A DNA stretch of 23,822 nt, from positions 1 to 23,822 of the IMG/VR virus record IMGVR_UViG_2671180283_000029; one strand, given 5' to 3'. Origin of the DNA: a virus. Lineage: Duplodnaviria; Heunggongvirae; Uroviricota; Caudoviricetes. Below, one piece after another: positions 1 to 16,256 of this stretch (the stretch's first letter is position 1; each line of letters starts with the position of its first letter). The position numbers and the translations under genes were made by a program. Below the pieces are notes generated by a model, which was given only the letters and a program-made list of their open reading frames with translations, did no database searches and was not told where the DNA came from.

Positions 1-291
1 ATGACTCACACAGTTACACGCCTTTTGCCAGAGGCATTTGAACGACTGGCAGCAATCAAAGCCAAATACCCTGATATGAAGCATACGGCGCTTGTTGGAG
101 AGCTTTTAAAAGAGTCGGTAACCCTTACCCCTTTTGATAACGTTAAGGGCGTTGCAGAAGGTTCTAAGGCCATCAGAATCACAACGAACCAACTGGAACT
201 ACTCAAAGCACAGTCCGCAGTAGCAGGTTGCTCAATGATTCAAGTGTTAAGTACCAAGGTTCATCAACTGGCGGATAAATTGGGGGTTTAA
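1..291 (+). CDS. hypothetical protein; possibly ribbon-helix-helix-like DNA-binding protein; may be 5'-truncated by the window edge
   Basis: 96-aa ORF starting at window position 1; two segments (TRLLPEAFERLAAIKAK and KAIRITTNQLELLKAQSAVAGCSMIQVL) loosely resemble RHH repeats; no upstream sequence available to confirm the start. Confidence 0.35.
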   Translation: MTHTVTRLLPEAFERLAAIKAKYPDMKHTALVGELLKESVTLTPFDNVKGVAEGSKAIRITTNQLELLKAQSAVAGCSMIQVLSTKVHQLADKLGV

Positions 292-521
292 TGCTACCTA
301 GGTACAAATTTTATAAACTGGCATCACATCTAATCAGACAAGATACCCGCTCAAAAGAATATGAAGATGTTACGCTTGACCGTAACAAGAAAAGACTAAA
401 ACCACATCAAATTGAGCAGTTACGCCATGAATTAAAGTCACTGGATATCGAGCTTGATTATAGTGACCCGACTCAATTTAAACGGGCTTATGAACTCATT
501 AAGAATTGGGGGGAAGAATGA
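291..521 (+). CDS. hypothetical protein (76 aa)
   Basis: ORF in compact same-strand array; its stop overlaps the next ATG (ATGA at 518-521). Confidence 0.4.
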   Translation: MLPRYKFYKLASHLIRQDTRSKEYEDVTLDRNKKRLKPHQIEQLRHELKSLDIELDYSDPTQFKRAYELIKNWGEE

Positions 522-727
522 AGAAAGTATTCACCCTCAAACTTAAAACAGATAAAGCCTTCAAATATTTTCGAAATCTAATTGATGTACATAATGGATG
601 GGGTGACATTGATAATGATGACATCTATCTGATTATGCAATCCCCATCTTTCACGTTAAAAACCTCAGTAACAAAAAGCTGGTTTAGCCAATTTCATAGT
701 GAGATGGGTTTAATAGTCTCAGACTAA
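518..727 (+). CDS. hypothetical protein (69 aa)
   Basis: ATG at 518 preceded by GGGGGAAG SD; the track start at 506 is TTG; translationally coupled to the upstream ORF. Confidence 0.45.
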   Translation: MKKVFTLKLKTDKAFKYFRNLIDVHNGWGDIDNDDIYLIMQSPSFTLKTSVTKSWFSQFHSEMGLIVSD

Positions 728-894
728 AGGCAAAAAACGGTTTTACCCACTCTCAGACGCTCTCAATCGCATTCTAACGCAAAAAACCATCTTATTTTAG
801 GGTATGTTACACCCCTACAGGCTACCCCTGAAAAAGACTGTTTAGCTCGTTACAGAGCGATTGAGGAGGTCTGGTAAAAAGGAGATTTTAGGAA

Positions 895-1191
895 ATGAAC
901 AATTACCCAATGCAAGTTATGGTTGACCAAGAAACTATGAATTGGCTTAATGACCTGAACAGGTCGGGATTTAATATCTATTTCATGCATTGTTTTGAAG
1001 CATCAACGTATATTGACAAGCATATAATCAACGAAATTAAACTTGGTGACTTTGTTCACAAACTGGAAGTAACAGACCCAGACTACAAGAGATTTATCAC
1101 AAGCGAATGCAACCGACTTGATTTAAGCCCGGAGCAATTATTGAAGCTGAATGTATTCTTGACATTAAACCCTTACAGTGAGGTGATGTAA
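895..1191 (+). CDS. hypothetical protein (98 aa)
   Basis: ORF with AAGGAG SD 8 nt upstream of the ATG. Confidence 0.5.
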   Translation: MNNYPMQVMVDQETMNWLNDLNRSGFNIYFMHCFEASTYIDKHIINEIKLGDFVHKLEVTDPDYKRFITSECNRLDLSPEQLLKLNVFLTLNPYSEVM

Positions 1192-1268
1192 TGACGCTCG
1201 TTATTTTATGGACAGCTTTAGGTTTATTATGTGGTTGCCTGATTGCTAACGCAGCTAACAGAAATTGA
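1191..1268 (+). CDS. possible small hydrophobic peptide (25 aa, MTLVILWTALGLLCGCLIANAANRN)
   Basis: ATG at 1191 overlaps the last base of the upstream TAA stop; strongly hydrophobic; below the ORF-track size cutoff; could be spurious. Confidence 0.25.
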   Translation: MTLVILWTALGLLCGCLIANAANRN

Positions 1269-1292
1269 TGTTATCAGATTGTTAAAAAGCTG

Positions 1293-1321
1293 TTGACAAA
1301 TAACCTTAAGCATGACATAAT
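1293..1321 (+). promoter_or_regulatory. near-consensus sigma70-type promoter
   Basis: TTGACA at 1293-1298, 17-nt spacer, CATAAT at 1316-1321, reading rightward into a ~380-nt non-coding leader. Confidence 0.5.
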
Positions 1322-1490
1322 TTTAATTATAGGGAAGAGCAATTCTTCCTAAAATCATATTTTCAATAATCCGATGGATGGATATTCTGAGTTGGAAAGG
1401 TGCAATGCTTTTCGTCATGGCCTTTCAGTTTAGTCTGAGAGGCTATCTCAAAAAGTCTTTGTTCATTCGTTATTGAATCCTTACAGCTTT

Positions 1491-1520
1491 GCCCTAATCA
1501 TGAGTTAGGGCGTTTTCTTT
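1491..1520 (+). terminator. intrinsic terminator-like hairpin in leader
   Basis: GCCCTAA / TTAGGGC 7-bp stem, 7-nt loop, followed by GTTTTCTTT. Confidence 0.4.
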
Positions 1521-1581
1521 AAGAGTTTTAAGCAGAGCTTTTAAAGAAAGTTTTTCCTGAAACTTCGTTAACGTAACCTCC

Positions 1582-1617
1582 AAAGCCCTTCACAGATTAT
1601 GTTTAGGGCTTTTCTTA
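1582..1617 (+). terminator. second hairpin with T-rich tail in leader (terminator or attenuator)
   Basis: AAAGCCCT / AGGGCTTT 8-bp stem with 15-nt loop followed by TCTT; weaker than the first hairpin. Confidence 0.3.
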
Positions 1618-1711
1618 ATAGAGCATCTTTAATCAATCGTTAAGTCATCTTCTAAGTGTATTGGCGTTGAAGGTGCTCTATTAAGAAATAACCACTTAGA
1701 GGAAAATTATA

Positions 1712-2422
1712 ATGACAAACGATTTATATATTAACGGCAGAAAGATTGATAGCTTCGGGGACTGGTCACCACAGACTGAACATCCAGCTATCGCTATTCA
1801 GCGTAAAGAACACGATGAAAGAATTAAGCTTGAGCAAGAAATCCGAATGTCACCAAAGGAAATTACCTTTGTGGCTCCTGAGCCTCAAGAAATGCCTGAT
1901 ATCTGCAAAAGTGAAGCACTATTTAATCTTGAGCGTGAATATTACCCACAGTTAAAAGAACAGCGCCTTAGACTAGATGACGCTTACAGCAAAGTTACCC
2001 TGATGCAATCAGCTATTGAGCCGTCAGAATTTGAGATTCAGGATGAATTGTCACAGAAACCATTTGTCTATTACCAATACGAAGACAATGATGGTTTTGG
2101 TATTTATCCAGAAAACATCCCAGCCGCGATTAGTAGTCTTCCTGAGGGACATCGAATTGTGAAGATGGTTAAGGCATCAAGAGGTGCTGGTCAGTTTATT
2201 TACATGACCAATAAGAGCGATGAAGAACTCTGTGAACTTGCCAGGCAGAACATCTTGGCATCACGTAACAAGCAACTTGAAAATGTTAAGTTGTGTCTCT
2301 TAAGAGAGCTTCAGGCTATGAAAGACCTTATTTCTGCATATGAAACGCAGAAGAAGATTGCTATGCAGGCTGATATTGAGCAGTTAGTGAAGATTTCAAC
2401 GAAGTACGCAAAGGTGCTTTAA
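1712..2422 (+). CDS. hypothetical protein (236 aa), acidic with a coiled-coil-like C-terminus
   Basis: ORF with GAGGAAA SD upstream of the ATG; no recognisable motif. Confidence 0.55.
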   Translation: MTNDLYINGRKIDSFGDWSPQTEHPAIAIQRKEHDERIKLEQEIRMSPKEITFVAPEPQEMPDICKSEALFNLEREYYPQLKEQRLRLDDAYSKVTLMQSAIEPSEFEIQDELSQKPFVYYQYEDNDGFGIYPENIPAAISSLPEGHRIVKMVKASRGAGQFIYMTNKSDEELCELARQNILASRNKQLENVKLCLLRELQAMKDLISAYETQKKIAMQADIEQLVKISTKYAKVL

Positions 2423-2445
2423 CTATGAATTAAAAGAGGTGATTA

Positions 2446-2655
2446 ATGTTTGAAGAACGTTTAGAGACTATTCGGTCTGTTTGTGAAAACTTAAAGTTAC
2501 AAGCCAATCCAGCCTTAAGAATTAAAAACAAACGTCAAGTTATCACCTCACACAAACCAAAAACACGCAAGATTCCAAAGTGGTGTATCGACCGTATCCC
2601 TTCTGATGCCCAAATCATAGGTGAAACGGAATTACATTATCTTGTCAGACATTAA
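2446..2655 (+). CDS. hypothetical basic protein (69 aa)
   Basis: ORF with AGAGGTG SD 4 nt upstream of the ATG. Confidence 0.4.
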   Translation: MFEERLETIRSVCENLKLQANPALRIKNKRQVITSHKPKTRKIPKWCIDRIPSDAQIIGETELHYLVRH

Positions 2656-2733
2656 AAAAGAATTGGTTGGGTAAAAATCTACGGGAGAGATTATCGAGTG
2701 ACATCGGTAGTTTCTCCCTTTTTTGTATATGTG

Positions 2734-2797
2734 CTACGTGAAATCTGTAAAGCTAATACCCACACTGAATAATAGAATTTACGTAGCTCACGCTTAA
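2734..2797. repeat. conserved 64-bp intergenic element, copy A (CTACGTGAA-N11-TAATACCCACAC-N15-ACGTAGCTCACGCTTAA)
   Basis: Three conserved blocks with identical 11- and 15-nt spacings, matched by copy B at 4979-5042; lies directly upstream of the 2816 gene. Confidence 0.6.
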
Positions 2798-2815
2798 AGA
2801 GGTGAAATATGAACA

Positions 2816-4966
2816 ATGGCACAGTTTAAAGTTGATGATTTTCTGATTGAGTTAAGTTTTAACTCTCAGAAAGTTTTAAAAGGCTTGGAAAAAGCCGAGA
2901 AACAAACGATGCAAATCGCATCAAGAATTGAGAAACGACTAAATAAGGCATTCAGAGTTAACCCTACGCCTTTAAATGATTCTCTCAAACTAATGGAAAA
3001 GAATGTCGATAAAACTGTTTCCAAGATTGAGCAGCGTCTTAAAAACACTAGAGCGTTTAAGATTAAAACGGAAATTGATGACACTTTAAAGCCACTTAGA
3101 CAACCAAGACAGCCACGAATTAGCGGCAACAGAGCAATCACAGCGGCTTACTCAGCTAATATGTCTAAGCTAAAAGGCTTTGACCCTATTTTGCAGAAAT
3201 ACATCAAATCTCAGTTTTACGGGCTATCTGCTAAAGCTGGGTCAATGGATTCTTCAAAATTCAATGAGAAGCTGACTCAGTTAAATGCTTCAGTCAGAGA
3301 AGCAATTGCTAAAGCTAAAGGTCATACATCCACCAGCATTAACAATACAAGCGACGCATTTAATAATCTTGCAAGCAATGCAATCAAGTTATCTGGTGCA
3401 TTTTACTCTGTGATGGGTGCTCTTAACGCTTACAAGGCCATCATGAATGCAGGTCTTAAACGAGATTCCGCACAGAGAGCCGCTAAGTTTGTACTTGGTG
3501 ATAAAGCATCTGAGGCTGAAACATTTATCAGGGGACTGGCTGACAAGACAGGTCTTAATATCTCTGAAGGGCTATCAAGCTACGCTAAGTTTGCAGCAGG
3601 TGCTCAGGGTTCTATGTCACAGGAACAGACACAGGAGCTATTTGGTAATGCAACGGCTATGAGTCGCTTAATGGGGCTTTCTAACGATGAGCTAAACGGC
3701 ATTTTGAAAGCATTTGAGCAGATGGCTTCTAAGGGCAAGATTCAGGCTGAAGAGCTTCGTGGGCAGTTAGGTGACCGTATGGCAGGGGCATTTAAGCTAT
3801 TCGCTGAAGCATTGGGTATGACTGCTACAGAGCTTGATAAAGCGATGAAAGACGGGAAGATTTTAAGTAGTGATACTCTCCCTAAAGTCGCTAAACAGAT
3901 GGGCTTGATGATTGATAAAGCGGGTGGCTGGGCTGAAGTCGCTAAGAGCACTCAGACAGCTTTAGGGAAACTGGCTAACAACTGGGATGATACGATGGTG
4001 AAAATCTTCTCAGGTTCACAGGATGAGTTAAACGGCTTCTTATCCAGCATGAGTAGCTTGCTTAGTGAAATGGGTATGAGTTCTTCTATCGCTGGTGATG
4101 CTATCGGTGGACTTATCGACATGCTTAAAGCTGGTGTAGATGACATCCGTATCTTTAACAATCACCTTGAAGGCTGGATTCTACAGATTAAGAAGACCTA
4201 TTACAGCCTTGATGACACTAAACGAAAACTACTTGATGAAGTCGGTGATGGTTTTATCAATTTTGTCAAAGGTCTTGCTATAGCGTTATCTGCAAAGACG
4301 CTATTCAGTGCTACTACAGGGGTTATGAACCTGACAAGAGCAATCACAACGTTAGGTACAAGAGCTAATCAGGTGGCTGGTCAGGTAGCTACTGGTAAAG
4401 GTGTAGCTGGTGGTGTAGGTAGTGCTCTTGCAATTGGTTATGCTGATGACGGTTATGAAACAGCGTTAGCATTAGCTTCAATGATTCCACAAATCAGAGG
4501 CGTCACTCTTGGTTTATATGCATTGAAGAAAGCACTGGATTTTATGAATCAGGAAGTAGTCAAAAACGCTAATATGCATCCATCTGGGGTAGGTGTGGGT
4601 AGTGACTTTAATCCTGTGTATTCTGGTGACCCTAATAAACCGAATATGATTAACGAAGGATGGGGTAGAATTTTTAGTTCAATGGGTGAATTGTTTAACA
4701 ATGCCACAATGAATATTGCAAGATTCAATCATCCAGAATTAATTACCATGAAACAAGATGCATCATTAACGAGCACTGACATCCAAAATCTAAGAGATGA
4801 AATTAGTGCTTTAAGTAAGCGTATTCAGGAGCCTGTGAAAGTTTCACTTGGTGGTGAAGTTGCCATTAAACCAGATGAAACCAGCTTTATGACCTTTAGC
4901 AGTAATATCTACGACCAATATGCAGAAGCTACGTTATTAAGTTCATCATTCCCAGAAGATGATTGA
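2816..4966 (+). CDS. phage tail tape-measure-like protein (716 aa)
   Basis: Motif GKIQAEELRGQLGDRMAGAFKLFAEALGMTATELDKAMKDGKILSSDTLPKVAKQMG resembles the conserved tape-measure domain; helical N-terminus and Gly/Ala-rich hydrophobic segments (about residues 480-560), typical of TMPs. Confidence 0.7.
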   Translation: MAQFKVDDFLIELSFNSQKVLKGLEKAEKQTMQIASRIEKRLNKAFRVNPTPLNDSLKLMEKNVDKTVSKIEQRLKNTRAFKIKTEIDDTLKPLRQPRQPRISGNRAITAAYSANMSKLKGFDPILQKYIKSQFYGLSAKAGSMDSSKFNEKLTQLNASVREAIAKAKGHTSTSINNTSDAFNNLASNAIKLSGAFYSVMGALNAYKAIMNAGLKRDSAQRAAKFVLGDKASEAETFIRGLADKTGLNISEGLSSYAKFAAGAQGSMSQEQTQELFGNATAMSRLMGLSNDELNGILKAFEQMASKGKIQAEELRGQLGDRMAGAFKLFAEALGMTATELDKAMKDGKILSSDTLPKVAKQMGLMIDKAGGWAEVAKSTQTALGKLANNWDDTMVKIFSGSQDELNGFLSSMSSLLSEMGMSSSIAGDAIGGLIDMLKAGVDDIRIFNNHLEGWILQIKKTYYSLDDTKRKLLDEVGDGFINFVKGLAIALSAKTLFSATTGVMNLTRAITTLGTRANQVAGQVATGKGVAGGVGSALAIGYADDGYETALALASMIPQIRGVTLGLYALKKALDFMNQEVVKNANMHPSGVGVGSDFNPVYSGDPNKPNMINEGWGRIFSSMGELFNNATMNIARFNHPELITMKQDASLTSTDIQNLRDEISALSKRIQEPVKVSLGGEVAIKPDETSFMTFSSNIYDQYAEATLLSSSFPEDD

Positions 4967-4978
4967 TTTAACGGTGTT

Positions 4979-5042
4979 CTACGTGAATAAAGCAAAGTTA
5001 ATACCCACACCAAAAATTATTTTTCACGTAGCTCACGCTTAA
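4979..5042. repeat. conserved 64-bp intergenic element, copy B
   Basis: Same three blocks and same spacings as copy A; lies between the TMP-like gene stop and the 5123 gene. Confidence 0.6.
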
Positions 5043-5122
5043 CAGAGAAAATACATACATATCAAAGGTTTGGTTAAAAATGATTAAAATACACTAAGCC
5101 TTTGAAATCAAAGGAGAATTTA

Positions 5123-5911
5123 ATGATTTACTCTAATCAGATTCGTTACAGTGGCAAAGATGGCATCTATTTCCACTTAAGAGATAATGTAGATGCCTTC
5201 TTAACCTTATCAGCAACTGAGAACATGGAATTTGATAGCCCTATGCAGGTGACTACACAGAATATGCAATCGGGGCAAACCGTCACAGATAATGTGCAAA
5301 GAGCACCCAGAACAATCACTATTAGTGGTGTCGTTGTAGTTGGCTATGAAGGGAGCTTATTATTAACTCGTCAGGGTCAATTAGTAGAAAACTTCATCGA
5401 CACTCTGGAAAACTGGCGTGACCAGAAGCAAATTATTTCGGTCATCTGTAAAGATGGAATTAAAATTGATGATTCCATTATTACGAGTTTTAAAGCCTCT
5501 AAAGATGTTGGAATTTCAAATGGTCTAAGAATCCAGCTAACTTTTCAGGAAATTAACTTTAAAGCGATTGTAGGACAAACTGATATTTCAGCAGCAACTG
5601 GAAAGACCGCTACTACAAATGACGGTGGTGTGACCAGTAAGAAGAATGCAGGTAACGTGACCACTGAACGCAATAACGCGCCTATGCTATCGTGCAAAGA
5701 ATTAATGAATATTAGCGATGTATCCGGTTACGCTCCAGCTATCAGAAATGATATTCTCGATGCTCAGATTAAATGTAATAAGGCTTGGAAGCTGGACTAT
5801 TCAGACTTAACAGAAGCTGAAAAAACCAACGTCACCAATGCTAACAGTAACGCTGGTCGGGTAGCTTCAAAGCTTAAAAAGTACTCAGTGAATCCTAACA
5901 AAAAATACTAA
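5123..5911 (+). CDS. hypothetical protein (262 aa); position after the TMP-like gene suggests a tail-associated role, unproven
   Basis: ATG at 5123 with AAGGAG SD (track start at 5102 lacks an SD); Thr/Asn/Gly-rich C-terminal half; 3' end overlaps the convergent recombinase gene by 4 nt. Confidence 0.5.
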
Positions 5912-7431
5912 ATCTCTACTACATCAACATCTATTAAACCCCTCTCAGTGACTTCAGAAAGCGACTGTATAGCCTCTGTAACGTCCTCTGAGGGGTTTTC
6001 TGTTATTGATAGGGTGATTGACTTACTATTGTGAAAAGTCACTTTACAGCGACGTTTAGCAGTATTTAAAACGACCTCTTTAACAGCACTTTTGATTATC
6101 AGTTGTGCTTCAATCCTTCCCGCCTTTGTAGTCAAGTCACAATCGGACAAACAACCCACATCAATAGATTTAAGGCGTTGTGTCTCCTTCTCGATATCAG
6201 CATCAACCTGTGATAGCTCACCTTTTAACTGTTTTAGTTTGCTGGTAATAGCTGACAAATCTTCAATTTCAAGTGATAGCTGTACCAGCTTTTCAATATT
6301 GCTTGAGATGTGTTCACGGTGTAGCCTCAACATATCTATGGTATTCGTCGTATCGCTATCAAATCGGTCAAGACGAGATAGCAGAGTAAGCAATGTACCA
6401 TCGGTTTGCTTACGTGAAAGTCCTTTAGCACTACAACGGTTTTCATTACGAAGAGGACAACGATAAATCCCGCTTCTTGTATCGCTAAAGCCTGTGATAA
6501 TCAGAGCATGACCACATTCAGAACAACGGATAACACCTTTGAAAAGATTCACAGCCATTGGCTTATCTGAAGCAGGTTTTCTACCGTAACGAGCATATGA
6601 TAGTTGCTGGACTTTGTAGAATGTTGTTTCATCTATAATTGCAGGATAATAATCAGCTATCTCTTCACAGCCTTTAGGTGTGAAGTAACCAATTACAGAG
6701 CGATTTTTCAGAAGGTCTTGTACTGAGGTTTGACCAAATGAACCCGCTTTATATTGGTTAAGCGTCTGGTGACCTTCATCATTAAGAGTCCTGACAATCT
6801 CCCAGATAGACTTACCCTCTAACCGTAGCTGAAAGCACCTCTTCACAGTTTCTACCTTCTCAGGTATCACAGAGAAGCTTTTACGGTCATCATTAAGCTT
6901 AAGCCATGCAGGACAACGTTTAGAAATCTTGATACCTTCAGAGATGAGTTCTTTTTTACGGTTCCATGCAGCTTGTATACGCTCAGACTTCCTCAAACTC
7001 TCCTCATGCGACCGCTGCATTATCAGAATGCTTTTAATCAGAGCTAACGGGTCTTTAAGAGATTCTCGTGTGTAATGTTCACCATCGGACAAGGTGACTA
7101 CATCTACACCAGAGCGAAGAATGTTTCGTAATAGCTCACTTGCTCGGTCTACGTTCTGGCGTGACAAACGGTCAAGAGATTCTATCAAGAGCGTATCACC
7201 AGCTTTAACAAGCCCTTTCTCGATAGCGGTTAAGAAGTCACCTAAGCCACCTTTCAAGTGCTTACCAGTGAATCCACTCACACCTAAATCACGGAAGGAT
7301 AAATCTTGGTCAAGGTAGTACTCAGGATGAGCCTTAAGCCAATCAGTGACCATCTTAGATTGTCGGCGTAATGAATCACCTCGGGATTGCTTCTCAGATG
7401 AAAACCTGATGTAAGAAATGGCACGTTTCAT
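5908..7431 (-). CDS. large serine recombinase (serine integrase), 507 aa
   Basis: N-terminal resolvase-type catalytic domain (YIRFSSEKQ with candidate nucleophilic Ser, [11 protein letters not shown]), then recombinase domain, Cys-rich zinc-ribbon-like segment (CSECGH...[11 protein letters not shown]) and C-terminal coiled coil; GAGGTG SD; sits at the element edge next to the junction. Confidence 0.9.
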
Positions 7432-7483
7432 TGTTCACCTCAAAACTGATGCCTAGATTGTATCGCTTTAGGTGGTGTATTTA

Positions 7484-7921
7484 AACGTGTCTAATAAAAA
7501 TCACCCGATTAACGCCGCGCTGATGTAAACCGCGATTAAGCGTTTGTTCCTCTTCCCCTTTGGCGAAAAACTGTGGATGGCGGACTTCCACACCATAATT
7601 AAATTCGCCAGGGAGAGAATCGAGAAAATGCCAAAGCGCAGGCAGCTCCCGTGGGCCGAATGTGGCAGGCAGTTGCAGCCAGTATTGCCCAATGCGCGGA
7701 GCCAACGGTGACATGCGGGTCAAAAATTCAGTCACTAAATCATCGCAATGTCGTAATGCTGCCTGATGCGAAATGGTCGCCGGAAACTTAAAACAGAAGC
7801 GGAAGTCATCTGTGGTCTGTTCACGCCAGCGCAGGACAACCTCGGGTTTCGGCAGGGCGTAAAGCGTGGTGTTGCCCTCCACGCAGTTAACATGACGGGT
7901 ATTAAGGATTAACTTACTGAT
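7484..7921 (-). pseudogene. yecE: internal fragment of a chromosomal DUF72-family gene (yecE-like), truncated at both ends
   Basis: Reading frame open from 7921 to 7484 with no credible start (track start is GTG); the protein matches my recollection of E. coli YecE across its central ~130 residues, with the C-terminal tail (IFIRHV) diverging near 7500 and the 5' end running into the integrase 3' end; GC visibly higher than the left element. Identity is from memory, not a search. Confidence 0.55.
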
Positions 7922-9222
7922 TTTAATAAGCCTCTGGTGTCACTTTGGTGACTATGGGGCATCATTGGGACATAATCTGTCAGCTTCTGATTCAGCATTG
8001 CGATCTGTTCTGCATTGCTGTCAGTCATCCATGCTCCGTATACATTGAATACCATCTGGGCACTTGCATGGCCCATCTGGCTGGCAATGAAGCTTGGGTT
8101 TGCTCCGGCAGATAATGACCAGCACGCATAAGTGTGTCGTGACTGGTATGCCTTTCGATGCCTGATCCCTGCACGCTTAATGGCTGTTTCCCATGAGTCA
8201 CCTACAGAATCGACTTTGTAGACAAAACCTACCTGTTCGCTTTTTCTAACCACTTGAGGGTTAAACACGAAAGTACATTCATGGTTCACTGAACGTCCAT
8301 ATTCACGTAGTTGCACCTTGATGTTGTACTGCTTACCCAGTCTTGTCATTTCAGCCTGATTTTTCAGGACACTGATAGCGGGCTGGATAAGGTGCACAAC
8401 CCTGTTTGTGCTTGCTTCAGTTTTCGGTAGAGTGAACTCACCAAGTTTCGTATAATTGCGCCTGATGGTAATTGTTCCTGCCTTCAGATCGATATCTTCC
8501 CAGGCCAGGGAGACCAGTTCACCGTGACGCATTCCTGTGTACACAGCCAATGACCACAGGTTTTTCGTCTGCTGATGTCGGCAAGCATCTATCAGGCGAA
8601 TAAATTCGTCACGAGTTAGCGGATCTGGCTCTGCCCTGGCTCTTTTAAGAGGCTTAATTCCCTGGAAGGGATTTGCTTCTAAGTAACCGTGATCTGCAGC
8701 AAACTGAAACATTCCAGCGATTGTCGTCATGTAATAATTTACAGTAACGACGCTCCGTCCTTTTGCTGCTGCTTTGTTTTTCGTTGAATTCTGATACCCG
8801 GTCAGCAAATCTTTCCTGATATACAGCAATTCCTCTTTGGTTACCGATGACACCAGTCTACTGCCTCCAATTTTCGGAACCATCGTTCTTGCAACGGATT
8901 CATAGCGATTGAATGCATTTGCAGAGATTTCCATTCGTTTCAGATCCAGCCACTTTTCTTCAAGTTTCTTCACCGTAATTTCTTTTTTACTTACCCCAAA
9001 AGCCTGAAGGTTGGGGGAGTCAGGGAACTGTGCAGCATAATCAAAGCTTCCTGTGCGGATGGCAAAACATACTGATGTCCGCAGTTCCCCGGCGATCTTC
9101 CTGTTCTTGGCAGTGTCAGGGACACCAAGATTTTCCCTGACACGTTTACCTTTAAAATTAAACCAGATGCGTAATGTGCCGCCGTGGTTTTCGACGCCTG
9201 TTGGATATTTGACTTTATCCAT
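7909..9222 (-). CDS. int: phage tyrosine integrase (437 aa)
   Basis: C-terminal catalytic region with Arg/His/Tyr pattern (GMRHGELVSL, SRHTYACW, MGHAS, VYGAW); GGAGG SD; adjacent to the chromosomal gene remnant and followed by an excisionase-like gene. Confidence 0.9.
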   Translation of the reverse strand: MDKVKYPTGVENHGGTLRIWFNFKGKRVRENLGVPDTAKNRKIAGELRTSVCFAIRTGSFDYAAQFPDSPNLQAFGVSKKEITVKKLEEKWLDLKRMEISANAFNRYESVARTMVPKIGGSRLVSSVTKEELLYIRKDLLTGYQNSTKNKAAAKGRSVVTVNYYMTTIAGMFQFAADHGYLEANPFQGIKPLKRARAEPDPLTRDEFIRLIDACRHQQTKNLWSLAVYTGMRHGELVSLAWEDIDLKAGTITIRRNYTKLGEFTLPKTEASTNRVVHLIQPAISVLKNQAEMTRLGKQYNIKVQLREYGRSVNHECTFVFNPQVVRKSEQVGFVYKVDSVGDSWETAIKRAGIRHRKAYQSRHTYACWSLSAGANPSFIASQMGHASAQMVFNVYGAWMTDSNAEQIAMLNQKLTDYVPMMPHSHQSDTRGLLKSVS

Positions 9223-9277
9223 CGATACCTCCAGACGCCCAAGAGCGATACGAGCTTACATATTTCATGATATTAAA

Positions 9278-9514
9278 TCACCTGGGTTGTTTGTTTTTCA
9301 TTGAGGCGACCCAGGCATCTATTGCTTTTCTGTTATACATACATTCACTGGAAGGCTTTGGATTACCGTCTGGTGATACGTGAATATACTCTCTTCCAAC
9401 CATCCAGCATTCTTTCCGGGCCCGAAGAATTGTGCCTGGTTTGAGCCCGGTAATTGCGATAAGAACGCTTTCACAAACCCATTCATTGGGAGTCAGTTGA
9501 ATCACATTGCCCAT
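9278..9514 (-). CDS. xis: excisionase-like protein (78 aa)
   Basis: Small protein immediately upstream of int on the same strand; WMVGREYIHV resembles the lambda Xis winged-helix region (DGREYLFH). Confidence 0.6.
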   Translation of the reverse strand: MGNVIQLTPNEWVCESVLIAITGLKPGTILRARKECWMVGREYIHVSPDGNPKPSSECMYNRKAIDAWVASMKNKQPR

Positions 9515-9522
9515 GCATTACC

Positions 9523-9669
9523 TCACACAACACTCAGCCCACGGCAGTGGTACCACACTTCAAACATTCGTTTCACAATTTCACGACAGTAGAAGACGTC
9601 AACATCTCGCGTCAGGTCATAGCGATTGCCGTAACGCTGGCGCACCCATAGCTCAAACGCTTTATTCAT
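9523..9669 (-). CDS. small hypothetical protein (48 aa, MNKAFELWVRQRYGNRYDLTRDVDVFYCREIVKRMFEVWYHCRGLSVV)
   Basis: ATG at 9669 with AAGGAAG SD; fills the gap between xis and the next gene; below the track size cutoff. Confidence 0.35.
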   Translation of the reverse strand: MNKAFELWVRQRYGNRYDLTRDVDVFYCREIVKRMFEVWYHCRGLSVV

Positions 9670-9672
9670 TCT

Positions 9673-9915
9673 TTACTTCCTTTTCATGGCCCGTAATTTT
9701 TTCAGATGAGCTTCCTGCTCTGTTTCTGCCAGAATTTGTCGGTATTCCTGGTGATCAATCCGTTCAAACAGTTCATTGAAATCGTTTATTTTTACTGACT
9801 GTGTTCGCCCATCCATTCTTCTGTACAACACAGTGTTGTTTATGCAGCGAACAATTTTTACCGGGTAACCGGCATTGTCGGTATACAGTTGTCCCTGATT
9901 AATCAAAGCGAACAT
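9673..9915 (-). CDS. hypothetical phage protein (80 aa)
   Basis: Internal ATG at 9915 preceded by AGGAG SD; the track's longer 121-aa version would overlap the upstream gene. Confidence 0.5.
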   Translation of the reverse strand: MFALINQGQLYTDNAGYPVKIVRCINNTVLYRRMDGRTQSVKINDFNELFERIDHQEYRQILAETEQEAHLKKLRAMKRK

Positions 9916-9946
9916 TTTTTCTCCTGCTCTCTGAATAGTGAGAACT

Positions 9947-10318
9947 TCAGAGCCGTATGTTTGTAGCGGGTTCAATACTGATAATTTCTGCTGAGATAAG
10001 CATCCCGGCAAGCCAGAGCTCTCCGGACAGATCTTCATCCTGGCATGTCAGTTCGCCAATATTAATGGTGGCCATGATATCTGTTTCCCCTGTACGCTCA
10101 TCCTCGACTTCTTCATAAGGCAGCGTTGCGTACAGGCTTTCAATAGCGCAACTGATAACATCGAGTCCGGTCAGGTTGCCACCGACAGTGACTTCGAATG
10201 TTTCGCGGTATTCCCATTGCCCGAAAGTTAATCGAACGGTTTGTTTCGCCATGCGTCCGCATGACGTCAGATTTGGGTCATAGTTCATTATTTGCGGTTG
10301 AGTATTATGAGTGTTCAT
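9947..10318 (-). CDS. hypothetical phage protein (123 aa), acidic
   Basis: ORF in the leftward early operon; no recognisable motif. Confidence 0.5.
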   Translation of the reverse strand: MNTHNTQPQIMNYDPNLTSCGRMAKQTVRLTFGQWEYRETFEVTVGGNLTGLDVISCAIESLYATLPYEEVEDERTGETDIMATINIGELTCQDEDLSGELWLAGMLISAEIISIEPATNIRL

Positions 10319-10359
10319 CTGCTTTTCCCTTAGCCCGACGGCCTGCCGGGCATATTAAG

Positions 10360-11187
10360 TTATTTAACCTGGATAAATGGTGTATTGGCACCGCTGGTCA
10401 TGTATTGCGGCAGCGTGCCATTCCATTTATTGATGGCTTCCAGCTCCATAACACCGGGGTTCTGACGCAGAGCTTCACCGCGTAAACGAATAGCATCGGC
10501 TTCAGCCTGGGCTTTTGTGCGAATCGCATCAGCCTGTCCGGCAGCTTCCGCGCGCAACATGTTGGCTTCCGCTTCGCGCTGTTTTACTTCCTGCTCGCGT
10601 TGCAGAGTTTTCTGGTTCGCCGTGACTTTGGCATTAATGCTGTCGATAACAGTAGGCGGGTACTCCGGCTTACCCACATATGAGAGGCTTATTACCTGAA
10701 TACCGATGGGCGTCATTTCTTCCTGAATGTCTTTAAGAGCTGCATCCAGCAGCTCAGACTTGCCGCCGTCGATAAATTTGTCGGTGGTCATTTTGCTGGC
10801 CAGTCGGTTGAGTGCGTCGGCTATCTTCTGGCGCAGGTCGGTGTCGGTAATGTCGTCCACGCCTTTGCGGTAGGTCTGAAAGACTGTGGTAACTTTGGAT
10901 GGATCAACCTTGTAGGCTACTCCGATGTGGTAACCAATGGTTGTTCCATCGCTCATCTGGAAACTGAATGGATCATCGTAGGTCTTCATCTGCTTAAAGG
11001 TCGGGAAGATATAAACTTCAGTGTTCCAGCCTGTCCAGTAGCGACCAACACCGACCACTTCACCGACGCCTTTGTCGTCGCCAAGTTTGTTGACTTTGAT
11101 GCCCACATTACCAGGCTCAACACGATCACAACCGACAAGGCCAATGGCAGGCAGAACAATGGCTAAAGAAAAAATAATTTTTTTCAT
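10360..11187 (-). CDS. SPFH/band-7 (prohibitin/stomatin-like) domain lipoprotein, 275 aa
   Basis: Signal peptide with lipobox LVGC (MKKIIFSLAIVLPAIGLVGC); band-7-like core; C-terminal Ala/Glu/Arg/Gln-rich coiled coil typical of SPFH oligomerisation tails; AAGGA SD; ATGA overlap with the upstream small gene. Confidence 0.75.
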   Translation of the reverse strand: MKKIIFSLAIVLPAIGLVGCDRVEPGNVGIKVNKLGDDKGVGEVVGVGRYWTGWNTEVYIFPTFKQMKTYDDPFSFQMSDGTTIGYHIGVAYKVDPSKVTTVFQTYRKGVDDITDTDLRQKIADALNRLASKMTTDKFIDGGKSELLDAALKDIQEEMTPIGIQVISLSYVGKPEYPPTVIDSINAKVTANQKTLQREQEVKQREAEANMLRAEAAGQADAIRTKAQAEADAIRLRGEALRQNPGVMELEAINKWNGTLPQYMTSGANTPFIQVK

Positions 11188-11372
11188 CTTTTATCCTTAG
11201 TGAAAGAAAGCCCCTTATAAATGGTATAAATGCATGGCGGGGTTAGAAACGTCAGTGCAAAGCCAGAAATCACCGCTACCGTATCCTTCATTGATATCAG
11301 AAACGGGACGAGCAATCCGTAAATACATGCGATAATTGCCAGTGATATAACTATTCTGAAATAAATATTCAT
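11184..11372 (-). CDS. small membrane protein (62 aa, two predicted TM helices) coupled to the SPFH lipoprotein
   Basis: Two hydrophobic stretches (IVISLAIIACIYGLLVPFLI and AVISGFALTFLTPPCIYTI); AGGAGG SD; its stop overlaps the lipoprotein ATG. Confidence 0.55.
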   Translation of the reverse strand: MNIYFRIVISLAIIACIYGLLVPFLISMKDTVAVISGFALTFLTPPCIYTIYKGLSFTKDKR

Positions 11373-11432
11373 GGTCCTCCTGCTGTATTCGGCTTGCCTT
11401 ATTTAATTGCGTCATGGTTAATTTCGTTTACG

Positions 11433-11825
11433 TCAGAATGGTTTTGTTGCCATCAGTTCGTAATATCCGGCGCTCCATGTGTCATATTTTCTGAACCATT
11501 TTTCTGTATACTGTTTCCTGGCGATGAGTCTGCGCAGTCGTCTGATTGTTCGCTGGTGTGCGCGGGTGTACTCTGTGGTTGATTCTCCACGTTTCCATAT
11601 CTCATTCCCGTTGAAGATAAAACGCTTGTCAGGATGGCGTTGTCGGAATCCTGAACGTTCAAAAGCGCGGGTGGTCATAAAGAATGCCAGGTAACGAATT
11701 GCCGTTTTTCGAGTGAGGCATTTTTTTGTTCTTCCGTGGCGTGTTACAAAAAATAACGGGCCGACGGGTGTATCATGTTTCTGTAATGCCTGGTCAATGG
11801 CGCTGGCGGTGCGGTTGTCGATCAT
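11433..11825 (-). CDS. hypothetical basic protein (130 aa)
   Basis: ORF in the coupled leftward operon; Arg/Lys-rich; start overlaps the upstream gene stop. Confidence 0.5.
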   Translation of the reverse strand: MIDNRTASAIDQALQKHDTPVGPLFFVTRHGRTKKCLTRKTAIRYLAFFMTTRAFERSGFRQRHPDKRFIFNGNEIWKRGESTTEYTRAHQRTIRRLRRLIARKQYTEKWFRKYDTWSAGYYELMATKPF

Positions 11826-12040
11826 TTCTTTATTTCTCCTGAATAACGTTCATGACTCATTACTTCCCAGTTCCGGCCGTCGTCTTTCGATAACAGCCGC
11901 CAGCGACGGTTAACCTTCAGACTGAGACATCCGTTGCGCTGTATCCGATGCGGGAATATACGTCGGCATCTGTACCGCCGCAGGACCAGCAACGCCTGCT
12001 GGTGGACCCACTCAGGAATTCGCGTTGCTGTTAATGTCAC
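11822..12040 (-). CDS. hypothetical protein (72 aa)
   Basis: GTG start at 12040 with AGGAGG SD 6 nt upstream; ATGA-type junction with the downstream gene. Confidence 0.4.
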   Translation of the reverse strand: MTLTATRIPEWVHQQALLVLRRYRCRRIFPHRIQRNGCLSLKVNRRWRLLSKDDGRNWEVMSHERYSGEIKK

Positions 12041-12227
12041 TGGTTTCCTCCTGAGCAGGTGCTGTTATCTGATACCCCGCTCTTTCTGCCAGCCATATGA
12101 ATGTATCCATGCTGGCAATCAGCTCTCCATCGCGGACTTTGCAGACATCTGTTACCTGGCCATTTTCAATTGTCATAACGATCTGCACTTTTTCGTGCAC
12201 AACAGATACAGGGGATAAATTAGCCAT
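12012..12227 (-). CDS. hypothetical protein (71 aa)
   Basis: ATG at 12227 with GGAGG SD; overlaps the stop of the upstream gene. Confidence 0.45.
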   Translation of the reverse strand: MANLSPVSVVHEKVQIVMTIENGQVTDVCKVRDGELIASMDTFIWLAERAGYQITAPAQEETSDINSNANS

Positions 12228-12586
12228 CAGTTAATTCCTCCGCTGATATATTTTTCTTTCGCGTAATCAATAACCTCTTGTAAAAGGTTGTCTATAATTA
12301 ACTTTCCGGTTTCAGCCTGGTATTCAGTATGTTGATTAATCCCGATGGCATTCTGGTATGCAGTTCGGAATTCTGTTTCACCCTCCACTCGACCCAATTC
12401 ACCACGGGTAATATCTTCAAAGCGCAACAGCAACTGGTTTATAAACTGTTCTGTTATTTCTATGGTCGTAATGTTCCCATTCAGAAGGTCAACAATAAGC
12501 AGTTCACCACCTGTTTTACGTTTTATTCGATGGAGTTCTGCAACAGCTATACGGCGACGATATGTATTAATGGATTCATGTGTCAT
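12227..12586 (-). CDS. hypothetical protein (119 aa)
   Basis: ORF in the coupled leftward operon. Confidence 0.5.
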   Translation of the reverse strand: MTHESINTYRRRIAVAELHRIKRKTGGELLIVDLLNGNITTIEITEQFINQLLLRFEDITRGELGRVEGETEFRTAYQNAIGINQHTEYQAETGKLIIDNLLQEVIDYAKEKYISGGIN

Positions 12587-12589
12587 TTG

Positions 12590-12703
12590 TTATTTCCCGT
12601 ATGCTTTACGCAGAAATAAGCAGGCAATATGCATGTAATTTTCACCGTATTGTGCAATAAGACAGGCGGTCTTGTGTGATGCCATATTCTTTATAAAAGT
12701 CAT
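12590..12703 (-). CDS. small hypothetical protein (37 aa, MTFIKNMASHKTACLIAQYGENYMHIACLFLRKAYGK)
   Basis: ATG at 12703 with perfect AGGAGG SD 7 nt upstream; ends 4 nt before the next gene's start; below the track cutoff. Confidence 0.3.
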   Translation of the reverse strand: MTFIKNMASHKTACLIAQYGENYMHIACLFLRKAYGK

Positions 12704-12781
12704 AATAAAGCCTCCTGTGGATTAAGATTGTAACAATCCCCGGCGATAAAACCGCAATAAACCTTCAGGGCATATTTGTTG

Positions 12782-13147
12782 TTATTGCGCTAATTCTTTT
12801 TCGGCAGCAGCTTTTGCATACTCACATGCAAAATTCAGAATTTCGCTGCCGAGTGTTTTCGTTTCGTGATTACTGGACATATGTAATACCTGTGTTGCAT
12901 GCAATAAATGATAAACATTTACCGCAAATGAATCAGGCTCCAGACAAATGCCTTCGTAATTATCTTGCTGTGAGGTTGTTTCTGTCATTGCTTCTGAAGT
13001 GCATGCGAGCCTGTTTTTGACAATTCTCTTTCCTCTAATCACTATATCGGCAACATCTATTGCCTTTACAACCTCCGGGAGAAGTTCCGGGTTTGTATAA
13101 TCAAAGTCATCAACATGGAGAACAGTTATGTTTTCGAACTTTTTCAT
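12782..13147 (-). CDS. hypothetical protein (121 aa); first gene of the leftward early operon (lambda N map position, not N-like)
   Basis: ORF preceded by a divergent intergenic region (13148-13326) containing inverted repeats; not arginine-rich like N. Confidence 0.5.
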   Translation of the reverse strand: MKKFENITVLHVDDFDYTNPELLPEVVKAIDVADIVIRGKRIVKNRLACTSEAMTETTSQQDNYEGICLEPDSFAVNVYHLLHATQVLHMSSNHETKTLGSEILNFACEYAKAAAEKELAQ

Positions 13148-13326
13148 GGCTTCCTCAGCTGACTTATATGTCCTGCTATATAGCGAGTCTCAGAAGTGTT
13201 TTCATATTGAGACTGTTTCCGCAATGATTGATAATCAGTTACCGGATGCTTATCCGTGTCCGGCGCACGACCACACGTAGCCGCGTGTTGGTCCCCATTT
13301 TCAATTCAGCTCTCAATGGAGGATAA

Positions 13327-13554
13327 ATGATTAACGCAGAGCAACTCGAAAAAGAGATTTCAGAACTCAAAAAAGAATTAATTTGGCACAAAGTTGCTAT
13401 CTCCGCATTAATTCGTCAGGTAGTTTCACCTGAAGATAAAGTAAAGTTTATGAAGCAGCTCTCATCTTCATCAAAGGAGTTTTTCACTGACGAGGTTCAT
13501 CCAGAGGCTGGATTTTGGATCCGTCAATTATTTTCGCAAGATAAGCGTAAATAG
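13327..13554 (+). CDS. hypothetical small coiled-coil protein (75 aa)
   Basis: ATG with GGAGG SD 5 nt upstream; converges on and overlaps the 3' end of the minus-strand 80-aa gene by 71 nt. Confidence 0.45.
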   Translation: MINAEQLEKEISELKKELIWHKVAISALIRQVVSPEDKVKFMKQLSSSSKEFFTDEVHPEAGFWIRQLFSQDKRK

Positions 13555-13726
13555 CGTCATCAATACTCGCGTCGCTCTTGAATTTAAGAGCGATGCTCTT
13601 TATATCCTCTGAAATTATTACCAGATCACCATATGTTATATTTTTATTATTGCGCGCAGTGCTTTTTTGTATGAAATCAAGCAATTCACCAATGAGACAA
13701 ATATGGTAAGCATTACAGTTTTTCAT
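13484..13726 (-). CDS. hypothetical protein (80 aa), gene B of the cI-adjacent module
   Basis: ATG at 13726 overlaps the TGA of the upstream HTH gene (ATGA junction); the track's longer version starts further upstream in the other gene. Confidence 0.5.
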   Translation of the reverse strand: MKNCNAYHICLIGELLDFIQKSTARNNKNITYGDLVIISEDIKSIALKFKSDASIDDAIYAYLAKIIDGSKIQPLDEPRQ

Positions 13727-14184
13727 GCGCAGATATCCTTTGCTGCCGTTTCGCCAGTTAACAGCCACATCGCATCGCAGCCAAGAATATTTGCCAGTGG
13801 GATAAGCATACTGATAGTTGGTTCATACTCTCCGCTCTCCCACTGGATGATAATTTCTTCATCGAGATCGAGCAGCCTGGCGAGTTCGGCGGTTGTTAAG
13901 CCGCAGGCTTCGCGTTGGGTGCGAAGGTTAACCAGCCAGCTTTCAGGGAAGGATTGTTTTTGTTGCGCAGGAGAAGCAGCAGATAGAGCATATTCATGGA
14001 TAAATTCCATTATCTCAATGCCCAGTTCCTTTGAGCGAGCACAATCCAGAAGATGGAATGTGCGTACAGCACTTAGCAAATTTGCAATATTTAATGCAAA
14101 GGAATCAAGTTCTAAGCCCTTAAGCGTAACACAGCCGCAGTTGATAAAATTAGTTGTTTCTGGAGTTGCTTTTAGTGTCTTCAT
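13723..14184 (-). CDS. XRE-family HTH protein with an unknown N-terminal domain (153 aa), gene A of the cI-adjacent module
   Basis: C-terminal LRTQREACGLTTAELARLLDLDEEIIIQWESGEYEPTISMLIPLANILGCDAMWLL is a classic XRE helix-turn-helix; ATG at 14184 with GGCGGA SD (track start at 14214 is TTG); N-terminal ~85 aa unrecognised. Confidence 0.6.
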   Translation of the reverse strand: MKTLKATPETTNFINCGCVTLKGLELDSFALNIANLLSAVRTFHLLDCARSKELGIEIMEFIHEYALSAASPAQQKQSFPESWLVNLRTQREACGLTTAELARLLDLDEEIIIQWESGEYEPTISMLIPLANILGCDAMWLLTGETAAKDICA

Positions 14185-14237
14185 ATATCCGCCAACAATT
14201 TTAAATTGAATCAAATCAAGTTATAATTGATGGTGCG

Positions 14238-14266
14238 ATATTATGTTTTGGGAAATAGCCTGTCAA
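14238..14266 (-). promoter_or_regulatory. near-consensus sigma70-type promoter for the gene A-B module
   Basis: On the minus strand TTGACA (rc of 14261-14266), 17-nt spacer, TAATAT (rc of 14238-14243); lies between the cI terminator and gene A. Confidence 0.45.
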
Positions 14267-14294
14267 GAAAAAATTGATATCGTATATTTCAGGC

Positions 14295-14318
14295 AGAAAA
14301 AAAACGGGCAAAGCCCGT
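14295..14318 (-). terminator. intrinsic terminator downstream of cI
   Basis: On the minus strand ACGGGC-TTT-GCCCGT stem-loop followed by T8. Confidence 0.55.
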
Positions 14319-14330
14319 TAAAATCAAAGA

Positions 14331-15026: not shown

Positions 15027-15153
15027 ATCCTGTGGGTTTCTTTACAAGGATAAATCTTTACTTGATTTTAGTGTATTCGATCCTTTTGCAACTTGCATGT
15101 TAATTTAAACTTGATGTATTCTTGATTTATAAAGTTAATATTGGTGCTTTGTT
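15027..15153. promoter_or_regulatory. cI/cro divergent promoter-operator region (pRM/pR equivalent)
   Basis: 127-bp AT-rich spacer between divergent cI and cro-like genes containing three copies of a CTTGAT-containing motif; exact operators not resolved. Confidence 0.45.
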
Positions 15154-15444
15154 ATGGAAGGAAATGATTACGACAAACTTCGTGCATTAATTGCGCAAAA
15201 TGCCATAGCGCGAAATCTTGGTGTGACGCCGCAAGCGGTGAATCAGTGGTTTTCAAAAAGCACAATTCCTGCTCGTTTCGTTTTACGAGTATGTGAAGTA
15301 GTTGCATGGAAGGTTACACCTCATGGCTTAAGGCCAGATCTTTATCCTCACCCTGAAGATGGAATTCCTAACTTGTTACGCAAAAGCCTAAATCCAAGTT
15401 CACCACACAGAGCGGATGGAATACACGCAGGAGATAAACAATGA
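15154..15444 (+). CDS. Cro-like (YdaS-type) HTH regulator, 96 aa
   Basis: Position divergent from cI; HTH-like segment ARNLGVTPQAVNQWFSKSTIP; stop overlaps the next ATG (ATGA). Confidence 0.55.
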   Translation: MEGNDYDKLRALIAQNAIARNLGVTPQAVNQWFSKSTIPARFVLRVCEVVAWKVTPHGLRPDLYPHPEDGIPNLLRKSLNPSSPHRADGIHAGDKQ

Positions 15445-16148: not shown

Positions 16149-16256
16149 AAAAAAGCCGGGAGTAACCCGGCTCACTCAACATCAATAACGGGGAGCTGTT
16201 TCGCATAAAACGGCTCCGAAACATCCAAGAACAGTTCTAAAGATATCAGCAGCTAT

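Follow-up and report, generated by a model that had tools for sequence, protein, structure and literature searches.

The stretch of DNA analysed here, positions 1 to 23,822 of IMG/VR record IMGVR_UViG_2671180283_000029 and called the window throughout, begins with the right two-thirds of a chromosomal island of about 11 kb (window 1-7431), which continues to the left of the window; a whole island of the same family can be seen at locus L001, ~6000-17200. In this part of the island a gene for a small basic protein, p69, an intrinsic terminator, a gene for a tape measure protein (TMP), a gene for a Dit-like tail or baseplate protein and the gene of the island integrase follow one another (Table 1). 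Our subject is a non-coding element of 64 bp, M, which stands once on either side of the TMP gene. A first-pass annotation had described the two copies as intergenic, flanking a tape-measure-like gene, and built of three identical blocks with spacers of 11 and 15 nucleotides (nt) between them, with no other copy in the window. This description is borne out. An exact pattern search of the whole window with CTACGTGAA-N11-TAATACCCACAC-N15-ACGTAGCTCACGCTTAA returned matches without mismatch at these two places only, both on the plus strand, and no match in 100 dinucleotide-preserving shuffles of the window; taken by itself, the 17-nt right block is found twice where 0.03 occurrences are expected, and a repeat finder reports the copies as a 68-nt direct pair of 78% identity. 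A covariance model of M, which scores copy 1 at 87 bits and copy 2 at 100 bits, agrees with the pattern search that the window holds no further copy. The bracketed gene is confirmed as TMP by its database matches.

Copy 1 begins 6 nt past the T-run of the terminator and lies between it and the ribosome-binding site (RBS) of TMP, and copy 2 begins 12 nt past the TMP stop codon, in front of the Dit-like gene. The outer blocks, which had been recognized earlier as inverted, turn out to be the arms of a longer inverted repeat with a core of 9 bp. M can be described as CTACGTGAA ... TT(C/T)ACGTAG around an AT-rich loop, followed by a tail, CTCACGCTTAA. The right arm reads TTCACGTAG in copy 2, which pairs with CTACGTGAA, and TTTACGTAG in copy 1, which leaves one G.U (or G.T) pair. 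The core can be extended to 15-23 nt when mismatches are allowed, and the flanks lengthen the inverted repeat further (TTAAcgGTGttCTACGTGAA / TTCACGTAGctCACgcTTAA), so that the imperfect repeat of copy 2 spans 4968-5042. Folded as RNA, the 64-mers reach -11.9 kcal/mol (copy 1) and -9.3 kcal/mol (copy 2), with z about -2.7 and a stem of 9 bp in the core or 13-16 bp counting mismatches. In copy 1 the tail directly joins the TMP RBS, and a homologous unit of M plus RBS is seen at both the pre-TMP and the pre-Dit position.

Table 1. Position of element M and of the neighbouring island features in the window.
Feature	Position	Strand	Description
p69, small basic protein gene	2446-2655	+	closely precedes the terminator and copy 1; conserved together with M
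Intrinsic terminator	2683-2727 (called 2683-2718 plus T-run)	+	15-bp stem and TTTTTTGTAT; immediately upstream of copy 1
M copy 1 (pre-TMP)	2734-2797	+	left arm 2734-2742, loop 2743-2777, right arm 2778-2786, tail 2787-2797
TMP RBS (AGAGGTG) and start of a short out-of-frame mini-ORF	2798-2815	+	read directly; abuts the M tail
Tape measure protein gene (TMP)	2816-4966	+	716 aa; Pfam TMP_3, PHROG 4036; bracketed by both M copies
M copy 2 (pre-Dit)	4979-5042	+	left arm 4979-4987, loop 4988-5022, right arm 5023-5031, tail 5032-5042
Leader between copy 2 and the Dit ATG	5043-5122	+	80 nt; 13-bp hairpin 5062-5105, z -3.2 to -4.2
Dit-like tail/baseplate gene	5123-5911	+	262 aa; PF21821, PHROG 3721
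Large serine recombinase (island integrase)	5908-7431	-	island right end

The relatives of the island tell more about M than the two copies in the window can. About 100 loci were compared, taken from complete E. coli genomes, from 79 metagenome contigs found via Dit, from IMG/VR contigs, and from contigs of Citrobacter and Kluyvera that encode p69 homologues. The copy in front of Dit is constant: all 88 island-type loci have it, and none of the 11 phage-type loci does. The site in front of TMP is polymorphic. The full element occupies it in about 35 loci, while in 12 it is precisely absent and the T-run of the terminator is joined to the RBS (...TTTGTAT/GAGGTG..., the slash marking the joint); in about 21 loci a remnant of 11-14 nt is left, which is the tail (ATGAACACTTAA or ATGAACGCTTAACA). 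Other loci have internal deletions of M (L045, L081) or a palindromic module of ~29 nt, P, alone or together with M. The first-pass annotation had proposed a search of related genomes for more copies, and a third one was indeed found at the left end of the island, outside the window, in the same orientation and with a loop family of its own. L111 has a clean left-end copy (38.7 bits), while those of L001, L006, L013 and L004 are degenerate or P-bearing. M is thus constant before Dit and optional before TMP, with 2-3 copies per island.

Among 5426 complete E. coli genomes, M was found in 466 and the island in 468 (~8.6%, roughly 1 in 12), and the 723 places where M occurs, with a median of 2 per genome, are all tied to the island. 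A BLAST search of 50,697 phage records with both copies gave only chance-level matches, as did the blocks of M in a complete Felixounavirus genome, where they fell inside genes only; the covariance model had no match in that genome either. The intergenic regions of Felixounavirus contain ordinary TTGACA-type promoters and a repeated cassette unrelated to M, such as the one that the Felix O1-type phage VpaE1 has of its own. The idea that M mimics a helper-phage promoter was rejected, since it has no counterpart in the phage records or in these intergenic regions. A search of Rfam at gathering thresholds found only the C4 and isrK RNAs of the neighbouring prophage, and with E values up to 5 on positions 1-7600 there was nothing at M.

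Arms and loop differ strongly in conservation. Mean pairwise identity is 96.5% in the left arm and 64% in the loop. The arms are unchanged in islands whose p236 (a hypervariable 236-aa protein encoded upstream of p69, with >3000 clusters at 90% identity), TMP and Dit are only ~25%, 41-48% and ~62% identical to the proteins of the window, and they are also kept in Citrobacter and Kluyvera. As a cis-element, M is non-coding and conserved and goes with the TMP and Dit genes; its arms are near-invariant across related islands, and no other non-coding feature of the island family is as well conserved. The loops fall into at least 7 families (A-G) plus an L111 type. The middle block TAATACCCACAC, identical in the two window copies, has moved by 2 nt in family C; D and F carry an altered form of it, and E, G and the L111 type have none. 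The tail CGCTTAA is replaced in some families by CACCCTTAA, CATCACTAA or CATCACAAA. The arms are mostly 35 nt apart, but among islands that look functional L111/L112 have a distance of 26 nt, L078/79/93 one of 36 nt, and those with a 27-nt insert one of 62 nt.

These numbers bear on what had been concluded from the window. A fixed spacing with variable spacer sequence had been taken as a sign of a protein-binding architecture, and the inference fails among the relatives; it arose because only two alleles had been sampled. The case is a caution, as a pattern of fixed spacing and variable spacers seen in two copies did not survive as a rule in ~100 relatives. Nor are the spacers freely variable. 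The two of the window are two of a few discrete alleles that are common to both positions, and a given half-loop allele can stand before TMP or before Dit and be joined to different partners (for example A+a, A+b, B+a, B+b and C+b), which indicates gene conversion and recombination within M. The other possibility that had been considered, that the copies are remnants of a simple duplication with spacers conserved in related genomes, does not hold up; M is more than a duplication remnant, namely a family-wide, island-specific stem-loop cassette.

The 27-nt inserts deserve a word of their own. Module P measures ~27-29 nt and has the form ATGAGGATAG-N4-CTATCCGAAGTCTAT, with variants, around a palindromic core. 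It is found before or after the terminator, alone or beside M (in L013/L025/L071, for example, between the terminator and the TMP RBS), and it also inserts into M loops, in either orientation and next to an arm, as in the left-end copy of L001 (6349-6375). A P-like palindromic insert of 27 nt sits inside the loop of the pre-TMP copy in L068, L083 and L097. There is no module P within the window.

M also marks a place where the island is mosaic. The pairwise identities of the 400-nt flanks on the two sides of copy 2 correlate with r = 0.15 only and give 50 strongly discordant pairs, against r = 0.82 and 5 pairs for adjacent segments within TMP; a breakpoint inside Dit gives r = 0.175 and 10 discordant pairs. 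The N-terminal alleles of TMP (~48% identical) assort independently of the Dit alleles and of the state of copy 1. The element lies at a mosaic boundary, across which the alleles of TMP and Dit are combined anew, and the exchange points are spread over all of its conserved blocks, which argues for homologous rather than site-specific recombination. The earlier suggestion that the copies are recombination sites bracketing a TMP cassette can be kept in this limited sense, as a joint for homologous recombination. The excision that a site-specific system would produce was not seen: TMP lies between p69 and Dit in all 80 loci that hold both genes, and the p69-Dit distance is 2.23-2.55 kb in 79 of them, the one exception being an IS2 insertion.

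Our preferred reading, to which we give a probability of roughly 0.4, is that M is a transcribed stem-loop leader which at the same time serves as a joint for homologous recombination. We infer that the element is transcribed and acts at the level of RNA through a trans-acting factor, and that its role is most likely in the control or processing of the tail-gene mRNA. Part of the argument comes from the loop. Indels of -9, +1 and +27 nt are tolerated there, and the arms are never hit; this fits a hairpin that joins the two arms, while the geometry of a promoter or operator on duplex DNA would not tolerate it. Every copy, the third one too, points the same way as the genes. In the core stem, transitions read on the plus strand yield 24 cells with a G.U pair at 5 sites, versus a single A.C cell at 1 site; G7 is invariant, and its partner is C in 16 cases and U in 21. 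In a Citrobacter locus (L106) the outer stem has been rebuilt with two G.U pairs into a perfect 15-bp helix of -27.3 kcal/mol and z -5.1. Covariation among the 37 distinct copies of M is not above that of shuffles, and the test is uninformative because the core stem is too conserved. Read-through transcripts must exist in any event, because in islands without copy 1 the TMP RBS directly follows the T-run of a terminator; between TMP and Dit the scans called neither a terminator nor a sigma-70 promoter.

The same island does use an RNA hairpin in an equivalent place, which adds to the case for M as RNA. On the plus strand at 1611-1688, between a terminator-like element and the RBS of p236, lies a hairpin of 20-22 bp with a loop of ~34 nt (-37 kcal/mol, z -4.6). 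Across at least 5 sequence families, 10 of its 20 pairs have compensatory double changes, G.U pairs are many, and there are almost no broken pairs. It has no match in Rfam and is a well-supported structured RNA, possibly a processing site of the RNase III type.

Not everything we found sits comfortably with a hairpin. In the outer stem of M, A.C outnumbers G.U; most families have a loop of 35 nt even where the loop sequences can hardly be aligned; a -10-like TAnnnT persists at motif positions 40-45 in families A-D; and the left-end copy has no RBS behind it. These points weigh against the RNA reading, and because of them a regulated promoter or operator on duplex DNA, unlikely as we hold it to be, stays a serious rival. 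Here a weak core promoter would lie in the AT-rich loop with the start near the right arm, and the arms would be operators for a regulator encoded by the island or its helper, so that TMP, Dit and the early region could be switched on independently. The strict conservation of the arm sequence is what one expects of a protein site; a strong terminator stands directly upstream of copy 1; the third copy heads the rightward gene array of the island. The -10-like hexamer is TAGAAT, TATTTT or TAGATT, and families C and D also show, read by eye, TGAACA 18 nt upstream of it. However, a sigma-70 scan (-35 and -10 each at least 4/6, spacing 16-18 bp) called nothing in either copy, and families E and G and the L111 type have no such hexamer; the middle block, too, can be missing or displaced. 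A 9-nt deletion and the 27-nt insertions fall within the would-be promoter of islands that are otherwise intact, and nothing comparable is found among the promoters of helper-type phages, which are sigma-70-like. The pre-TMP copy is dispensable; since it is precisely absent in many islands, M is no obligatory promoter of TMP. The dedicated late promoter with activator sites proposed at first is weakened in this way, with no sigma-70 call and no -35 element, and what speaks for it still is the -10-like TAnnnT of most loop families. An inspection by eye for sigma-32, sigma-E/ECF, sigma-28, sigma-54, T4 late, MotA, CRP, NarL, TyrR, LexA and IHF motifs found none that was consistent across loop families. 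The TAATAC... in the loop also raised the idea of a rolling-circle nick site or geminivirus-like loop, which was dropped, as the families do not share this block and a Rep/HUH protein is lacking.

The remaining explanations do without regulation, and they have to account for the same facts. If M were simply a conserved linker, kept for the homologous recombination and gene conversion by which islands swap tail-gene modules, much as boundary sequences are in mosaic phages, the strong allele discordance across copy 2 would follow, as would the shuffling of loop halves and flanks between copy 1, copy 2 and genomes and the uncoupling of the TMP N-terminal alleles from those of Dit. We find this improbable, as it leaves unexplained the inverted-repeat arms, the indels that avoid them and the pre-Dit copy that is never lost (88/88), while the breakpoint inside Dit is similarly strong (0.175) without any motif. 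It is harder still to see M as a functionless miniature mobile element (MITE- or REP-like) or a decaying duplication remnant. Its inverted terminal arms, the sharp borders and remnants in the presence and absence of copy 1, and the insertion of a second palindromic module in or beside it in either orientation would suit such an element, yet M is confined to this island family (466 versus 468 genomes, with a median of 2 places), keeps a constant position and orientation, leaves no target-site duplication when filled and empty sites are compared, and has arms conserved across genera far above the flanking genes. Barely credible is the view that the copies are sites at which a serine recombinase of the island, or an integron-like system, moves TMP as a cassette. 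There are two serine recombinases in the island family, direct repeats bracket a single gene, and arms around a variable loop superficially recall attC; but no derivative without TMP (80 loci) and no inverted arrangement was seen, many islands do without copy 1, and the crossovers are not at one point. Arms 26-62 nt apart are also unlike hix, res or att sites, which have two half-sites of ~12 bp and a 2-bp core, and the island has no integron integrase, while the small serine recombinase is missing from some islands.

If the stem-loop reading is right, the following picture can be drawn. The functional core would be a 9-bp duplex of CUACGUGAA and UU(C/U)ACGUAG, often with 4-7 further pairs outward, which would close a loop free in sequence and length and be followed by a short A/U-rich tail (CGCUUAA) leading into the Shine-Dalgarno (SD) sequence. 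M would act in the plus-strand RNA as a leader or intercistronic element of the TMP and Dit messages, offering a sequence-specific handle to a protein that sets their processing, stability or read-through; p69 and a ribonuclease are candidates for this protein. Passively, it may also supply a crossover point, since no other DNA between these fast-diverging genes is strongly conserved and each island has 2-3 copies of M; in this way TMP and Dit alleles could be shuffled and one copy of M converted into another.

The candidate partner p69 is restricted to the island family, where it forms 110 clusters, and it remains 85-91% identical where the neighbouring genes have strongly diverged. An AlphaFold model (pLDDT 79) has a helix at the N-terminus, a linker of basic character and a small domain with beta-alpha-beta-beta topology; searches for a structural relative or a family match to p69 found none. 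To name p69 as the trans-factor of M is a guess from co-conservation and position. A bolder version of the RNA reading, which we consider a long shot, would make M and p69 a dedicated RNA switch, a stem-specific operator or nut-like system by which an undescribed satellite of virulent Felix O1-type phages would let RNA polymerase or ribosomes through its terminator-punctuated operon only during infection by the helper. Such a switch would time the production of the TMP and Dit of the island, which would then be built into the tails of the helper or sabotage them.

There are several known systems to which M can be compared. Arbiol and colleagues are said to have described, in 2010, mobile regulatory cassettes of T4-type phages called PeSLs (promoter-early stem-loops). 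PeSLs and M are alike as direct intergenic stem-loop repeats of ~50-70 bp around single genes, at mosaic boundaries and with modular shuffling. A PeSL, however, combines a clear early sigma-70 promoter with a terminator-like stem-loop, and M has no callable promoter and no U-tract; M also resides in a chromosomal island and has only 2-3 copies. By the features that define a PeSL, M has the repeated intergenic stem-loop at mosaic boundaries and lacks the embedded early sigma-70 promoter. The nut sites of lambda and of rrn operons share with M a hairpin and a short conserved single-stranded motif in the leaders of a terminator-punctuated operon, and here too a gene for a small basic protein, p69, adjoins. 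The M tail CGCUUAA(CA) resembles boxA (CGCUCUUA / CUUUAACA), but is 2 nt shorter than CGCTCTT(T)A, lies 3' of the hairpin in the rrn and not the lambda order, and varies between families. In M it is the stem and not the loop that is conserved, copy 1 comes after and not before the nearest terminator, and no similarity of p69 to N was found. M was not accepted as a nut site by the boxA/boxB pattern, given its short, variable tail and conserved stem.

RNase III processing hairpins occur between phage cistrons, as in the R sites of T7. Like M, they are intercistronic, co-oriented, irregular helices upstream of an RBS. The usual pattern is ~20 bp (two turns) of double-stranded RNA with few interruptions. 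The helix of M has 9-16 bp in most islands, and its sequence, not its shape, is conserved; the 20-22 bp, covarying hairpin in the p236 leader fits this class well. The attC sites of integrons also have inverted conserved arms, a variable loop, a direct orientation beside a gene and allele exchange. M differs from them in the absence of IntI, of R'/R'' boxes (RYYYAAC/GTTRRRY; its own arms are CTACGTGAA/TTCACGTAG) and of any excised cassette or empty array. An intrinsic terminator was also considered for M and rejected: the loop has 26-62 nt where 3-8 nt would be expected, the right arm is followed by CUCACGCUUAA and not by a U-tract, and the scan calls the terminator at 2683-2718 but not M.

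The island itself, common and satellite-like, seems to us at least as interesting as the element. In the left part of its conserved order there is sometimes a gene for a small serine recombinase, for a Dam methylase or for an HNH-AP2 protein, followed by a stretch poor in open reading frames (ORFs); then come several small genes without a known function, a small HNH gene, p236, p69, the terminator, TMP, Dit and the integrase. The island's proteins of this unknown kind had no match in Pfam, PHROGs, NCBIfam or PADLOC, and p236 is called a transposase in RefSeq annotation without a supporting domain. The family encodes two serine recombinases, of which, as mentioned, the small one is not always present. 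The island of the window is inserted in a DUF72 (yecE-like) gene, a fragment of which is left at 7481-7882, and the same site is used in L005, L006, L110 and L111; related islands sit in yecE, between yegS and yegR, near tonB and elsewhere. Besides E. coli, the island occurs in Citrobacter, Kluyvera, E. albertii and Shigella; a scan of species-representative genomes found 2 loci only.

Both tail genes point to Felix O1-type phages. Part of TMP has ~88% nt identity to the TMP of Felixounavirus, and the first ~150 nt of Dit (5147-5300) are 98.7% identical to gp112 of VpaE1, a Felixounavirus; the TMP and Dit-like genes of the island still exchange sequence with virulent phages of this type. In Felixounavirus phages TMP and the Dit homologue overlap, without intergenic DNA. 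With its own integrase, two tail genes like those of a helper and otherwise no virion genes, the island resembles a satellite of Felix O1-type phages, or an element acting against them, that has not been described before. A literature search for a Felix O1-type satellite with a TMP, or for this island family, gave nothing directly relevant. The nearest parallel comes from Barth et al. (2023, PMC10055350), who report putative E. coli satellites of Justusliebigvirus phages that encode a TMP and a baseplate protein. Like the island, these are integrative elements of ~11-13 kb with TMP and a baseplate-type gene and no complete tail module, and both share sequence with lytic myoviruses. They differ in having a major capsid protein, a decoration protein, RepA_N, mostly tyrosine integrases and another presumed helper genus; compared by description, no M-like motif is reported for them (PMC10055350). 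Should the island prove to be a satellite or to act against phages, M would be the natural point of entry to the switching of its two tail genes. It is also the place where tail-gene alleles are swapped in an arms race with phages that are used in diagnostics and biocontrol of Salmonella and E. coli.

Other observations concern the leaders next to M. A six-codon out-of-frame mini-ORF, ATGAACAATGGCACAGTTTAA, at 2809-2829 (+) starts 5 nt after the SD sequence and runs across the TMP start codon (2816); among the other alleles there is either a comparable upstream ATG or a TMP ATG directly behind the SD. The 80-nt leader of Dit is present in 69 of the 88 loci and absent in the other 19, where 13-21 nt are found instead. 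Its hairpin encloses a 5-codon mini-ORF, ATGATTAAAATACACTAA, and the 3' arm, AAGCCUUUGA, could pair alternatively with the SD region of Dit, UCAAAGGAG, as a translational switch.

Further upstream in the island, the leader of a 98-aa gene (895-1191) folds at 725-870 (+) as a long-range hairpin, CUCUCAAUCGC ... GCGAUUGAGGAG, whose 3' arm carries a GAGGAGG motif ~28 nt upstream of the ATG at 895. The plus strand at 1293-1512 carries a sigma-70 promoter close to consensus (TTGACA-17-CATAAT with TG, 11/12) and, ~170 nt on, an intrinsic terminator (1490-1512); no ORF of at least 50 aa lies within or reaches into ~1322-1512 on either strand. This unit could be a small RNA gene of the island; allowing up to 2-3 mismatches, M has no complementarity to it. 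In L001 a stretch of ~1.5 kb (7021-8545, outside the window) has no ORF of at least 45 aa, and a similar one is seen in L013 (~1250-3450). The stretch in L001 lies between the left-end copy of M or the small recombinase and the first conserved genes; an origin, a packaging signal or non-coding RNAs may be located in it.

Beyond the island, the neighbouring prophage contains at 16277-17232 (+) a 656-bp tandem duplication (82% identity over 300 nt) that carries two sets of isrK and C4 antisense RNAs, with Rfam matches at 16314-16390, 16415-16502, 16970-17046 and 17071-17158. A prophage with a tyrosine integrase adjoins the serine integrase of the island both in the window (7909-9222, minus strand) and in a Citrobacter locus (L107, 11434-12216, minus strand), which suggests a shared or adjacent integration hotspot.

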